Of a stretch of DNA of 7,876 bases, positions 1 through 7,876 are shown in pieces (positions within the stretch are counted from its first letter, which is position 1; each line of letters starts with the position of its first letter). A program made the position numbers. This DNA comes from Candidatus Rifleibacteriota bacterium (GTDB taxonomy: Bacteria > Muiribacteriota > Ozemobacteria > Ozemobacterales > Ozemobacteraceae), in assembly GCA_051747585.1 (NCBI GenBank), contig JBNJGH010000143.1, forward strand, positions 1 through 7,876. The letters are read 5' to 3'.

Positions 1-3000
1 GAAAATCGTCATCTACGGCACCGGATTCATCTACTTCAATGCTTTCTTCGCCTGCTGTCTGTTCCGGTTCGTCCTTCGCTTCTGCGCTGGTTTCCGCTTG
101 TTCAGACTTTTTGCCGGCGGCGGGTTTAACAACATCTCCCATAAGGTCTTCGTTGGCGCTTAAAATAAATTCAGAAGGATCGCTGTCGTCAGAATCTGTT
201 GCAGTTTCAGTGACGTCCGGGGCAGGTTGTTCTTCAGCTTCAGAAATAGAAACCGAATCATCTGCATCTAGATCACCAAAATCAAAGCCTTCTGTTTCTA
301 CTGTGGCAGTATCTACATCGATCTCAATACTGTCATCTTCATCGCTCTGACCGACAATAAGGCTGCTTAAATCATCATCATCCTCGCTGACCGAAATTTC
401 TTCGGGTGCTTCGGCGGCTTCTTCTGATGGTGTCTGTGCTTCGGGAACTTCAGCAGCTTTTTCCTGCTGAGGTTCTGGGGATGGGGCTTCAGGTTGAGCG
501 GGTGGGGCAGGCGGAGGCTCAGGAGCCGGTGGTGGTTCAGGCGCAGGCGGCGGTGGCGGAGTTGGTTGCGCAGCTTCGCTGGCCTGTTGTTCTACCGGTT
601 GTCCTGCATCCAGGTCAATGGCAATTTCTTCGGTCATTGGCGTTTGCTCAGGCTGTTGCTGCAGATCTTCAGGCGCAATAGCTTCCTGAGAAGCGCTTTC
701 TGCCGGTTCCTGCGGTGCCGCAAAAGGATCTTCCATGTCTTCGGGGATGGCACCCAGATCAAGTTCATTACTTGATTCAGTCTGAGCATCTTCATTGGTC
801 AGGTCCAGATTTAGTTCTGATCCTGTAGCATCGGCAGGTTGTTCCTGATTCAGGTCCAGATCGAGAGTGCCTTCATCTTCAGATAGTTGTTGGCTTAAAT
901 CGAGTTCCTGAGTCTTGTTGGGATCAAACGACTCATCCAGATTGAGTTCCGATGAAGAAGAGTCCATATCCAGATCGAAGGAAAGTTCATCGTCTTTGCC
1001 GCTTTCCGGAAGATCAAGGTTCAGCTCATTTGAACTTTCAGAAGAGCCTTCCTCTTTTGATGCAGAAGATGTTAAATCAAGACTCACATCTTCTGTGGAA
1101 GGATCACCAAGATCGAGGTCCAGCCCATCACCCTGATTTTGAGAATCAGAGCCTTCAGCATCATCGATTTCAAGAGACAGGTCTAGATCAAGCGGCTCTC
1201 TTTCCGCCGGCGAATCCATAGATTCACCTTCTGCGGGTAAACTCATCCCGCACATATTACAAAACTTATTATCTTTTTCATTTTCGAATCCACAACCGGG
1301 ACACTGCATAGAGACCTCCGATTTAAGCAGTCTGAGCGCTTCTATGTTTAATCTCTGCGATTAACAGATAAAGCAGCAATTGTCTAATTTTTTACTTCTC
1401 AGGAAGAAACTCGGTAAGATGGGGGAATTCCTTAAGCATTTCTTTTCGAATATTTGCTTTATTACCTGAATAAACAAGATTATTCATGAATTCTACAATC
1501 TTTTTATGTTCCAGTAAAGGGATTAACCTGCCAATATTTGAAGCGGCAGATGTCCTGATACTGAATTCATCTATTCCGGCACCAAGCAGGGCAATTAGGC
1601 CGGCCGGGTCAGAAGCCATTTCCCCGCAAACACCTGTTTTAATACCAAGCTCATTAGCCTTTCTTACACACTGGTAAATTAATTTAAGGAAGGGCTGACA
1701 GAGAAAATCCGTTAAACCGTCGAGCTTCTCGTTGGTTCTATCCATTGCATAGAAAAACTGAAGCAGATCATTGGTGCCAAGGCTGATGTATTTTGTGTAT
1801 TCAGCTATTCGATCGAGCATAAAAACCGCAGATGGGACTTCGACCATGATTCCCCATTCCGGGGGCGTTTTTATTGCAAGCTCTTTGCAGGTTTCACGGT
1901 AAATTTTTTCTATTTCCTGTAGCTCTTTTTCGACCCCTACCATTGGAAAAATTATTTTGGCGTTTTTGCCGTCTGCCGCTTTCAGCATAGCACGCAACTG
2001 GGGTTTCAATATGTCTGGCCGCGCCAGCAAAAAGCGGGTTGACCTGAATCCCATAGCCGGGTTCTCTTCATGCGGAAATGGGATATATTTGAGTGGTTTG
2101 TCAGAGCCTATATCTATAGTCCTTAATACCGCCATTTCGGGTGCAGCCTCAATTACCTTTTTATAGGTATCGAGCTGGAATTTTTCAGAAGGCAGATCCA
2201 TGCTTTCCATAAAAAGGAACTCGCTGCGAAAAAGCCCGATTCGTTGCAGACCAAGTTTTTTTAAAACATGCAGCTCTTCGGTTCGGGCAATATTTACCCC
2301 TAATTTTAATTCAAAATTATCAGCAGTTTTGTTGCTAATCTTTTCGACTTTCTCCTGGTGTTTTAAAGACTCTTTTAGCTGCTTTACATCTTGTTCGCCG
2401 GGTTTAAACACCACTTTGCAGTTTGATCGAGTATCGATCAGCACCTGATCACCGGTTCTGGCAACCAATGAAAGGTTTTCAAGCCCGAAAACGGAGGGTA
2501 TACCAAGAGCGCCCGACAGAATTGCAACATGAGAGGTTGCTCCACCCGAATCAAGGCATACTCCCATTAATTTTCCCCGGGCAAAGTCGAGAATTTCGCC
2601 GGGGGTTATTTCAGGTGCGATCAGAACATAGGGTTCGTCGCCAATTTCGGTTGCAGGTCCTTCAAGACCCATTAAATGACGTAAAAGTCGATCGCCTACG
2701 TCTTTGACGTCTATTGCACGTTCTCGAAGATAGGGATCTTCTATTGCAGAGAAGGCAGCTTTAAGTTCATTAATGCGATCTCTGACAATACTTTCTACAT
2801 TTACTTTATCTTTTTTTAATTTTTTGATCAGCTCTGGTTTGAATTGGGGATCTTCAAGCATCAGCAGATGAGAGTCAAAAATTGCGGCATATTTTTCGCC
2901 ATGTTTGGCAGCCGCTTTTTCTTTTGAGGCCGTAATGTCATTGCGCGTTAGTTTTATTGCAGTTTCAAGTCTTTCAATTTCTTTGTCTATCTGTTGTTCT

Positions 3001-6000: not shown

Positions 6001-7876
6001 AGGGCCGGCACCTGCTTTTACACTTTCCTTGAATTTTTCCCGGGCCTTGTAAAAATTGACGCTTTTTTGTTCTATCCGAATATTTGGGTGCTTCTGATGG
6101 AATTTGTTGATAATATCCGGCATTATAGAAGCTTCCGGACCTTCCATGGTGTTCCAGAATTCGAGCACTATTTTCTTGCTGTTGGTTTGCGAAGCTTCTT
6201 CTTTGCCGCACCCGACAATTACAATCAGCATATTTGCCAATAAAAAGAACAGCAAACTGAAGAACAGTTTGCGTGAATTCTTTAAATTTTTAACTTCTTT
6301 ATAGGTCATTAGTCAGGCCTGTCAGAAAGGTTATTTGTCAGGTTTTATTCATTCTTTCGCGCAATTCTACAGGTATCAGACTGCTTAAAAAGGTGGAAAG
6401 ATTCGACCGGAATGTGAGCAATGACTTCCTGGCCGACTTCTACTTTTACAGCCGGATCAACTCTTGCGTTGATACTATGACCATTGCTTACAAGATAGAG
6501 ATATGTTTCTGCCCCCATTGGTTCTATAAGATCTACACGACAGGGAAGCTTAAGGGTAGGCACAGACTTGTCTTCGAGATCGATAAGAATATGTTCCGGT
6601 CTGATTCCCATGAACATATCGTCGTCTTCGATCGAGGTAAAATAGTCATCGAGCTTGATTTCCCAGTCGAGATTTTTGTCGCTGTCTTTGGCCGGCATTG
6701 AAAGGCCATTCTTACTTTTATTCACTTTTAGCATGTTCATTGGCGGTGAGCCGATGAAAGTGGCGACAAAAACATTTGCCGGTTTTTCATAGATTACCGA
6801 AGGTATGTCATATTGTTGAATTATACCTTCATGAAGCAATACAATCCGGTCTGCCATGGTCATTGCTTCAACCTGATCGTGTGTAACATAAACGAATGTG
6901 GTTCTGAGTCGCTGATGCAGCTTCTTAATTTCGGCACGCATCTGAACTCTGAGTTTGGCATCAAGATTAGACAAAGGCTCATCCATAAGAAAAACTTTTG
7001 GCTCTCTTACAATGGCTCTGCCCAGAGCGACACGTTGCCGTTGGCCGCCGGAAAGCTGCTTGGGCAGCCGATAGAGATATTCGGTCAGACCAAGTATCTC
7101 CGCTGCTTCATCGACTCTGCGCTTTATTTCTTCCTGAGGAAATTTGCGCAACTTCAATCCAAAAGAAAGGTTGTCGCGAACATTCATGTGCGGATACAGG
7201 GCATAGTTCTGAAAAACCATTGCTATATCGCGATCTTTGGGTGGCAGGTTGTTTACCACGACATCACCAATTTTTATTTCACCTTTGGTAATGTCTTCAA
7301 GCCCTGCGATCATACGCAAACTGGTACTTTTACCGCATCCCGACGGTCCGACAAGAACAACAAATTCCTTGTCGTTAACAAAAACGTCAATTCCCTTGAC
7401 TGTGTCGTCATTTGCTCCGTCATATCTTTTAACTACATTGGAAAAATTAATAGAAGCCATTATCAGCCCTCGCTTTATAGAATATCGCCAAGAGGCACAG
7501 GTTCGTTCTGGGGCGTCGGTTGAAAAACCGGCTTAATCCCAGATTGTAAAATCTTTTCAAAAAATTGTCGATCATCATTGTCCAGGTGTAGTGCCTCAAA
7601 AATTTCGCTTTTGTTGCTTTTAGAATGCATCCCGCCAACATTGAAGGTTTCCGGCACTATACCTTTTTGCAGGCATGACCAGGCATCTTTGGGCGATTCA
7701 ACAAGAATAAAAGAATTTTTGCTGACTTTTGAGTCATCTATCTGGCCGGTAGAATAGAAATGCAGTTCTATTTCCGGTGGAACCGAAAGCCCCATCATTT
7801 CCTGGCGCATAACATCGTTTGATATCTTGTCATTAACTACGATAAGAAGGTCGGGCTTTATTTCAGGCAACCAGCC

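Follow-up and report, generated by a model that had tools for sequence, protein, structure and literature searches.

A conserved mannose-family PTS operon of Ozemobacteraceae encodes an orphan solute-binding protein and a predicted shared sugar ABC ATPase

Gene content and layout of the operon

The window, a stretch of 7,876 nucleotides covering contig C143 of a Candidatus Rifleibacteriota genome, carries seven genes of one operon on the minus strand, all of which (7/7) exceed Pfam cut-offs and lie where the survey's finding had placed them. In the direction of transcription, they encode a mannose-family phosphotransferase system (PTS) IIB, cut at its 5' end by the contig end (7475..7876; PF03830, 85 bits), a MalK ATPase predicted to be of the shared MsmX/MsiK type (6345..7460; ABC_tran, OB_MalK and TOBE_2 domains), an orphan solute-binding protein (SBP) classed as a CUT1 lipoprotein of the MalE/GacH (maltodextrin) type (5005..6309; PF01547/PF13416), a divergent mannose-family IIC (4207..5001; PF03609, 104 bits), a mannose-family IID starting at GTG 4240 or ATG 4210 (3419..4240; PF03613, 192 bits), HPr with its His15 and Ser46 motifs (3137..3409; PF00381) and enzyme I (EI) with a TSH phospho-histidine motif (1392..3119; TIGR01417, 441 bits against a cut-off of 342). 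The start part of a large acidic zinc-ribbon protein (2..1309, minus strand; Zn ribbon below cut-off) is a conserved downstream neighbour and probably lies outside the transporter. Its HEAT-repeat relatives of 1,400-1,900 residues come after HPr or EI in sister families.

The upstream end of the operon lies on a second contig (C211:3-643), which holds a cut IIA gene and a HutP-family gene together with a consensus sigma-70 promoter. The two contigs do not overlap, and the assembly gap has swallowed some 77 IIA residues and 21 residues of IIB, the IIB phospho-histidine among them; the join was accepted because IIA adjoins IIB in 32/32 relatives having both. Upstream of hutP, both this genome and the 15 relatives inspected have a near-consensus sigma-70 promoter. 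Within the window, a scan for promoters and terminators did not rise above chance: it gave 10 promoter and 8 terminator sites, and shuffled sequences gave 12.0 and 8.3.

In Ozemobacteraceae the gene order is hutP-IIA-IIB-malK-SBP-(GH57)-IIC-IID-HPr-EI, an operon of nine or ten genes, and the conservation across genera that had been claimed earlier extends family-wide: all nine genes stand in order at 27 of 40 loci and the remaining 13 stop at a contig edge. IIA, which had been missing from the ORF calls of two relatives, is present in 32 of these loci. The extra ORF previously seen between the SBP and IIC genes exists and can now be identified as an AmyA-type GH57 that retains the catalytic motifs (7/40 loci); wherever it is lacking, 1-18 bases separate SBP from IIC (33/33 loci). 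An ABC permease gene, likewise in agreement with the earlier reading, was found within the operon at none of the 40 loci.

Components and origin of the phosphotransferase system

The mannose-family PTS is complete in its components and phospho-residues. IIA, IIB, IIC and IID are all present and pass their Pfam cut-offs, IIA and IIB being whole in relatives, and the phospho-histidine motifs are kept in EI (32/32), HPr (35/35), IIA (32/32) and IIB (34/34). HPr, the single match in this genome, is its sole HPr; Ser46 is kept in 35/35 sequences and HprK is present. The system resembles ManXYZ of E. coli and LevDEFG in its separate IIA, IIB, IIC and IID with phospho-histidines, but differs in that EI and HPr belong to the operon, genes for an SBP and an ABC ATPase lie among those of the PTS, and IIC (50 of 340 bits) and IID (144 of 293 bits) fall well short of the NCBIfam cut-offs for the characterised ManXYZ/Aga subfamilies; the cut IIB reaches 63 of 164. 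IID aligns to ManZ structures with E-values of 2e-36 to 4e-40 and keeps the motifs QxSWNY, FNTNPY and GDG invariant, while RGMM and TNP replace the ERMQ and THP/TQP motifs of ManZ. A conserved IIC segment, Y104-x-x-R107-E108 (Y104 and E108 in 30/30 sequences, R107 in 29/30), aligns with a shorter, outward-facing GGQG loop of ManY. The predicted fold of IIC alone (pLDDT 61) was too weak for placing this loop.

Relatives of this IIC elsewhere lie in clusters of the type ptsN-hprK-rapZ-IIA-IIB-(GH57)-IIC-IID-HPr-EI, from which IID is often absent (L120-L148). None of 80 such loci has an SBP, HutP or MalK-type neighbour, so that members of this PTS subfamily do occur in the absence of a binding protein. 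The PTS genes of Ozemobacteraceae descend from a housekeeping hprK-type cluster of this kind, found elsewhere without SBP or MalK. The likeness extends to hprK-rapZ-IIA-IIB-GH57-IIC-IID-HPr-EI in another lineage and to the hprK-rapZ-yvcK-whiA-HPr cluster, of which hprK-yvcK-whiA is found here on contig C19 and whiA-hutP-malK-HPr in sister families. In Thermoanaerobacterales, according to PMC8760340, cyclo/maltodextrin ABC genes share a cluster with those for HPr, RapZ and WhiA. That cluster includes the permeases, with msmX lying far away, the reverse of the situation here.

A predicted shared ATPase for sugar importers

MalK matches B. subtilis MsmX (6YIR) with an E-value of 4e-109, and the MsmX residues D77, R104, E110 and K154 correspond to D78 (35/35), R105 (33/35), E111 (35/35) and K155 (35/35); the part of PMC7658222 that treats these four tested residues states that single residues do not decide function. 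The Walker A lysine, LSGGQ, DEPLSNLD and THDQ are kept in 35/35 sequences, and a C-terminal OB/TOBE domain is present. MalK is usually single-copy: a second full-length ATPase occurs in 10 of 51 genomes, with its own permeases adjacent in the three checked, and the chromosome-level genome G001 combines MalK as the only full-length CUT1 ATPase with four ATPase-less CUT1 pairs. The genome studied here does contain five ATPase-less CUT1 importers (C4, C50, C61, C92 and C110), as the survey's finding had it, and a sixth cluster (C224), whose permease pair is cut by the contig end, has its own ATPase. This inventory and the MsmX signature support the earlier proposal that MalK is the spare ATPase of these importers; from its sequence we identify it as a shared CUT1 ATPase of the MsmX/MsiK type, which would act in trans as MsmX and MsmK do.

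One ATPase for several ATPase-less CUT1 importers is the arrangement of MsmX (B. subtilis), MsmK (S. pneumoniae) and MsiK (Streptomyces). Here, unlike in those systems, the gene sits in a PTS operon of a diderm, an envelope type assumed before and supported by LpxB genes, beside hutP and near HPr; in the relevant passages of PMC7658222 and PMC3302838, multitask ATPases of this type are described as orphan or monocistronic. In sister families f2-f5, hutP directly precedes malK in 9/9 genomes, none of which has IIC or IID, and the next gene is HPr in two genomes and GH57-HPr in one. MalK is thus independent of the PTS permease, because malK stays with hutP, and in three genomes with HPr, where EII is absent. 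Direct PTS control of MalK through HPr and HprK is plausible. EIIA-Glc was rejected as its regulator in this genome, PF00358 having not been found at 94% completeness; that domain was found in two of five genomes. Two of the relatives checked encode a separate PtsG.

The adjacency of malK and SBP, flanked on both sides by EII genes, could also be read as a fully hybrid pore in which IIC and IID stand in place of MalF and MalG, the SBP is the receptor and MalK docks on the pore and powers it. We give this very little credence, as neither IIC nor IID is matched by a BPD_transp_1 model, while MalK has retained the residues of the MsmX permease contact region and persists in genomes without EII.

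The HutP-fold protein

The HutP-family protein was modelled with a pLDDT of 90, and its best 11 Foldseek matches are HutP (TM 0.69 and E 1e-5 against B. subtilis HutP); a search of its profile against solved sequences gave no HutP match. In the HutP antiterminator a terminator lies between hutP and the regulated genes, with hut genes downstream, and His73, His77 and His138 form the metal and histidine site. In a weak alignment, the His73 position is histidine in 18 of 23 sequences, the His77 position does not count histidine among its commonest letters, the His138 position has it in 7 of 23, and the protein of this genome has H, R and Y at the three positions. The leader is short, the gap between hutP and IIA is 1-6 bases in 32/32 cases with PTS genes following, and there are neither hut genes beside hutP nor room for a terminator after it. 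The protein thus appears like B. subtilis HutP in fold and Pfam family and unlike it in histidine ligands, hut genes and terminator room. Attenuation of the operon by HutP was rejected on the short gap and the unconserved histidine positions, two of the three. The proposed role as RNA-binding antiterminator of this operon is not supported by these features, by the short leader or by the finding that hutP travels with malK and not with EII.

An orphan solute-binding protein

Among solved proteins, those closest to the SBP are GacH, with an E-value of 2e-54, and 8ART, a maltose-binding protein of Streptomyces type, with 7e-49; its score of 76.5 bits lies below a MalE cut-off of 291. Its lipobox stands as noted earlier, except that the cysteine is residue 34 and the motif had been put at 31-33; this cysteine (31/31 aligned SBPs) and the putative pocket residues are invariant. 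The protein is a conserved lipoprotein, probably of the MalE/GacH type, which by homology would bind maltose or maltodextrins in the periplasm. As in MalEFGK and GacHFG, a MalE/GacH-like SBP gene lies beside malK, with an AmyA-type GH57 adjoining in some genera, but malF and malG are absent from the operon. Its nearest relatives in the phylum are MalE proteins with their own MalF/MalG-like permeases (genomes G017 and G026), with which most of the compared pocket positions are common, and an orphan SBP in a family without EII (f11). A profile search with the SBP gained no outgroup, 78 of 79 matches looking like family members, and an ESM Atlas search returned generic CUT1 clusters only. Other orphan SBPs here adjoin a GGDEF protein or a class III cyclase.

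SBP, IIC and IID occur together in 27/27 good Ozemobacteraceae (Ca. Riflebacteria) genomes, whereas 0/17 good sister-family genomes have IIC and IID; malK, hutP, HPr and GH57 are retained there, unaccompanied by this SBP. Over all genomes, IIC is present in 46 of 51 from the family and in none of 36 others from the phylum, which agrees in kind with earlier counts. A MalG-type orthologue was found, with one query, in only two of 51 family genomes, each time with its own SBP. In almost every genome, then, the SBP is without a matching permease, and it is part of this operon only if the EII genes are too.

The partner of the SBP could be the PTS pore itself. In such a binding-protein-assisted PTS, which we regard as rather unlikely, the SBP would capture maltose or short maltodextrins, dock on the outer face of IIC/IID and either deliver the sugar to the elevator core or gate it; in the gating variant, periplasmic alpha-glucan would set the phosphorylation of IIB, IIA and HPr and, via HPr, the activity of MalK. 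An elevator mechanism is reported for ManYZ in a passage of PMC8021565. Besides the strict co-occurrence, the short SBP-IIC gap and the want of any cognate or free ABC permease, this reading draws on the conserved IIC segment and the changed IID motifs, and on PtsG, whose presence in two relatives means that glucose need not be this permease's job. Branch rates of the SBP correlate with those of IIB (0.60), IID (0.33) and IIC (0.29) and not with those of core ABC permeases (-0.19 and -0.06). These rates are kept as a weak hint, as of 36 pairs only SBP-IIB clearly stands out, and the test is confounded by shared location: MalK does not covary with the permeases it should drive (-0.07 and 0.03). 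Moreover, the co-occurrence is that of one clade, hence one event, the related IICs do without an SBP in 80/80 loci at similar loop length, the sister SBP persists in f11 without EII, and short gaps are the rule throughout the operon, which makes the coupling unspecific. GH4 phospho-alpha-glucosidase was found in none of five genomes, leaving no evident route for maltose 6'-phosphate. A predicted complex of IIC, IID and SBP scored 0.00 in two runs and counts neither for nor against.

To our knowledge, PTS permeases are regarded as working independently of binding proteins, and our literature search turned up no precedent. TRAP and TTT transporters are non-ABC systems that depend on a solute-binding protein, but they are ion-driven secondary carriers with other SBP families and no group translocation. 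In S. mutans, according to the abstract of PMC3043104, the sugar-binding proteins of LevQRST-levDEFG are tied to a mannose-family PTS and serve no ABC pore; LevQ and LevT signal via a histidine kinase and a response regulator, neither of which is encoded in the operon here.

It is also conceivable, if improbable, that the PTS permease is mainly a signalling device or carries a sugar other than an alpha-glucan, that the SBP ligand is no maltodextrin, and that only sticky gene order holds the genes together. The low subfamily scores of IIC and IID, the frequent absence of IID from related clusters, the distance of the SBP from the MalE cut-off and the conservation of unrelated neighbours such as the HEAT protein would all fit. 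So would GH57, kept in 9 of 50 family relatives and staying with HPr-EI in sister families without EII; for the latter reason it was dropped as proof of maltodextrin as PTS cargo. Against this stand the invariant phospho-residues and core IID motifs, the solved SBP relatives that bind maltose or maltodextrin, and the pocket positions largely common with the permease-linked MalE proteins.

Two modules in one carbon-control operon

We lean with moderate confidence towards a co-transcribed carbon-control hub, in which two modules stand side by side and the SBP acts in trans. The operon would be constitutive and hold a PTS and the shared MalK. Phosphate would pass from PEP through EI, HPr and IIA to IIB, and the sugar carried by IIC/IID would be phosphorylated, whereas MalK would energise four or five pairs of CUT1 permeases whose genes lie elsewhere. 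HprK would phosphorylate HPr on Ser46, and this form of HPr would probably switch MalK off. The HutP-fold protein may be a partner of malK with a ligand other than His-Mg. The SBP, binding maltose or maltodextrins in the periplasm, would be a leftover MalE whose malFG are absent, working in trans without docking on IIC/IID.

Within this reading, though we hold this tentatively, the SBP would most likely serve as a second receptor for a core CUT1 permease driven by the neighbouring MalK; a role as ligand sensor or trap is less likely, and the operon has no sensor gene. Some observations count against an SBP in trans. There is no free permease, every CUT1 pair having its own SBP in 6/6 genomes checked, and SBPs that share one permease are usually closer in sequence, while identity to the nearest SBP paralogue of this genome is only 27%. 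The core permease pair also occurs in sister families without this SBP, which occupies its slot exactly where EII is present, and its branch rates follow the EII subunits and not the core ABC permeases.

Significance

Even on the ordinary reading of two modules, the operon adds a predicted multitask ABC ATPase in a diderm phylum, a linkage of hutP, malK and HPr that hints at control of MalK by HPr, and a HutP-fold protein that is widespread and has altered ligand residues. The bolder proposal, a binding-protein-dependent PTS in Ozemobacteraceae whose HPr would curb the one ATPase serving all sugar ABC importers, appears doubtful to us. If it were true, a single transcript would decide in which order all sugars are used, and group translocation would be added to ABC, TRAP and TTT systems among the users of solute-binding proteins. 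A binding protein conserved throughout the family, with no ABC pore and beside IIC and IID, offers a clean test case for an exception to the binding-protein-free PTS.

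Operon content and distribution

The source genome (4.1 Mb, 94% complete) carries, on the contig that the window covers in full, seven genes over Pfam cut-offs, all on the minus strand: EI, HPr, IID, IIC, the solute-binding protein (SBP, 5005..6309), MalK and a cut IIB. C211, a second contig, encodes a truncated IIA and a member of the HutP family; it has no overlap with the first, and about 100 codons are absent between them. A scan with IIC led to 40 loci, many labelled Ca. Riflebacteria or Ozemobacteraceae, of which 27 show the complete nine-gene order and the remaining 13 stop at a contig edge; in seven of the 40, SBP and IIC are separated by an AmyA-type GH57 gene that retains its catalytic motifs. 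Of 87 genomes compared across the phylum, 51 are Ozemobacteraceae; 46 of these carry IIC, 46 carry IID, and none of the 36 others has either (27/27 versus 0/17 when only genomes with completeness of at least 90% and contamination of at most 5% are considered), and the operon SBP is present in 47 of the 51. LpxB genes support a diderm envelope.

Two further proteins accompany these loci. A zinc-ribbon, acidic, HEAT-repeat protein of 1,400-1,900 residues is encoded downstream of EI or HPr in several families of the phylum (window 2-1309; loci L074:9249-13649, L204:1682-5974 and L205:1385-7021). A conserved, secreted-looking protein of 360-400 residues with no Pfam match is divergent from hutP in many relatives (L005:2896-3990; L200:3387-3913) and lies on a separate contig in the source genome.

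The PTS components and their lineage

Phospho-residue motifs are kept in all relatives examined (EI 32/32, HPr 35/35, IIA 32/32, IIB 34/34), as is HPr Ser46, and contig C19 carries HprK with yvcK and whiA. IID can be aligned to solved ManZ chains and retains the W-N, FNT-P and GD motifs, with ERMQ replaced by RGMM, and with N where the ManZ chains have H or Q in FNT-P. IIC and IID score far under the NCBIfam subfamily cut-offs, and the substrate is therefore not readable from family assignment. Gene content, gene order, catalytic motifs and genome inventory are direct observations; the PTS part presumably transports sugar.

The nearest IICs beyond Ozemobacteraceae are short proteins (E 1e-31 or weaker). 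Five of these, used as queries in a metagenome scan, yielded 80 loci, 30 of which, from one lineage (L090-L119, e.g. L093:422-10536), read ptsN-hprK-rapZ-IIA-IIB-GH57-IIC-IID-HPr-EI followed by a PGI-type gene, the AmyA-type GH57 being seen in 24 of these 30. No SBP, HutP or MalK-type neighbour occurs in any of the 80. The interleaving around GH57 therefore predates Ozemobacteraceae, and members of this PTS subfamily occur with no binding protein encoded beside them. Elsewhere (L120-L148, other lineages), numerous loci have IIA-IIB-IIC without an adjoining IID.

Most Ozemobacteraceae genomes encode a further enzyme I, stand-alone and above the TIGR01417 cut-off (L051:915-2660, contig C8 in the source genome). 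Relatives also have a separate glucose PTS (L198:6071-10392, with PtsG over cut-off and a fused IIA-HPr-EI; L199:5607-10265), which was not found in the 94% complete source genome.

HutP, promoter and history of the cluster

The operon HutP-family protein is predicted to have the HutP fold. The metal and histidine site of B. subtilis HutP (His73, His77, His138) corresponds, via a weak alignment, to H, R and Y in the source genome, and His occupies the third position in 7 of 23 relatives. The hutP-IIA gap is 1-6 bases in 32/32 loci. Upstream of hutP, 39 bases separate the start from the end of a TTGACA-17-TATAAT promoter, and a similar promoter was recognized by eye in all 15 relatives inspected (of 32); the operon would thus read as constitutive, without attenuation. 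HutP-family genes occur in 76 of the 87 genomes. The source genome encodes a second family member fused to two CBS domains (L043:1590-2375, contig C159), flanked by gltX and a PIN/TRAM-like membrane gene, the latter named by eye.

In all nine genomes of four sister families (f2-f5), hutP lies immediately upstream of malK, with HPr next in two, GH57-HPr next in one and whiA upstream in six; in families f6-f11, 10 malK loci were examined and none has an adjacent hutP. The run GH57-HPr-EI was read directly in relative G010 and deduced from coordinates in G011-G014 and G072. In G010, which is without EII, a ROK-family kinase gene is found upstream of this run (L204:7718-10839). The simplest history would be an ancestral whiA-hutP-IIA-IIB-malK-(SBP)-GH57-IIC-IID-HPr-EI whose EII genes were lost in the sister families; SBP may have been lost together with them or gained later in Ozemobacteraceae.

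MalK as a probable shared ATPase

The ABC motifs of MalK are all intact. The protein aligns to B. subtilis MsmX, and the four residues that PMC7658222 reports as tested are kept in 35/35, 33/35, 35/35 and 35/35. Its NCBIfam name, UgpC, is taken as a family label only. In the source genome, five CUT1 clusters lack an ATPase and a sixth encodes its own; relative G001, a chromosome-level assembly, has one MalK and four ATPase-less CUT1 pairs, and 10 of 51 genomes hold a second full-length ATPase. This fits a MalK shared by several CUT1 importers. The multitask ATPases described in PMC7658222 and PMC3302838 are shared in this way, but are orphan or monocistronic.

In two CUT1 importers the SBP is fused to a permease (L046:855-5950; L047:1-5698). 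The neighbours of one are a BadF-type kinase and a SIS (MurQ-like) gene, and a glycoamylase-family gene adjoins the other; such neighbours hint that they recycle cell-wall sugars and use beta-glucans.

In Lactobacillus casei, MalK is inhibited by Ser46-phosphorylated HPr, and PTS control of the operon MalK would likewise run via HPr. In E. coli, MalK is inhibited by EIIA-Glc, according to PMC13521151; the EIIA-Glc domain PF00358 was not found in the 94% complete source genome.

Possible partners of the binding protein

The SBP is a lipoprotein (Cys34 in 31/31). Among solved proteins, GacH and another maltose-binding protein rank as its best relatives, and it probably binds maltodextrin. Sixteen of 19 likely pocket positions, picked by the analyst with roles that we take to be those of MalE, are identical among 15 operon SBPs compared. 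In a midpoint-rooted tree of 36 sequences, all from this phylum, operon SBPs form a single clade (100/100) that groups (96/91) with the MalE of relatives G017 and G026 and with an orphan SBP from f11; the SBPs of the core ABC importers lie elsewhere. The G017 and G026 MalE adjoins MalF/MalG-like permeases; among the matches listed for one query, a MalG-like gene was seen only in these two genomes, all other matches being at most 40% identical. In six of six genomes each CUT1 permease pair comes with a dedicated SBP, either next to it or fused, except the C224 pair, which is cut by a contig end. The SBP is thus a conserved protein that lacks a cognate pore and is encoded where the EII genes are. 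That it serves a CUT1 permease in trans is the likeliest single reading, although clearly short of an even chance.

The survey's finding had the SBP work with IIC/IID, as a binding-protein-dependent PTS. Over 37 branches of 20 genomes (two of 22 were left out for a cut SBP), SBP rates covary with those of IIB (0.60), EI (0.37), IID (0.33), IIC (0.29) and MalK (0.26), versus -0.19 and -0.06 with one core permease pair; controls gave 0.54 for IIC-IID and 0.52 and 0.36 for core SBP-permease. MalK shows no covariation with that pair in the 20 genomes either, so shared location may explain the SBP-EII pattern.

Orphan CUT1 SBPs are also found beside a dCache-HAMP-GAF-GGDEF protein in the source genome and G001 (L050:155-3432; L057:5975-9210) and beside a class III nucleotide cyclase in G010 (L066:8001-11214). 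In f11, the sister of the operon SBP heads a row of two to four large genes that match no Pfam model, and no ABC permease is among them (L058:8792-13562; L059:8373-17542; L063:1272-9466).

Several observations argue against a partnership with IIC/IID: the SBP-EII co-occurrence amounts to one clade, f11 retains the sister SBP without EII, related IICs do without SBP, further orphan SBPs have a GGDEF protein or cyclase as neighbour, and a search of five genomes found GH4 in none. In S. mutans, moreover, binding proteins linked with a mannose-family PTS serve as sensors, according to PMC3043104. We hold the partnership to be doubtful, and a sensor or trap role for the SBP to be slightly more so; the remaining probability goes to other readings.

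The individual parts are all known already, and the arrangement had no precedent in the literature searched, which comprised main texts, with few subscription journals and a minority of the genome papers on the phylum. Should the SBP, against our expectation, prove to assist the PTS, such a system would be categorically new.
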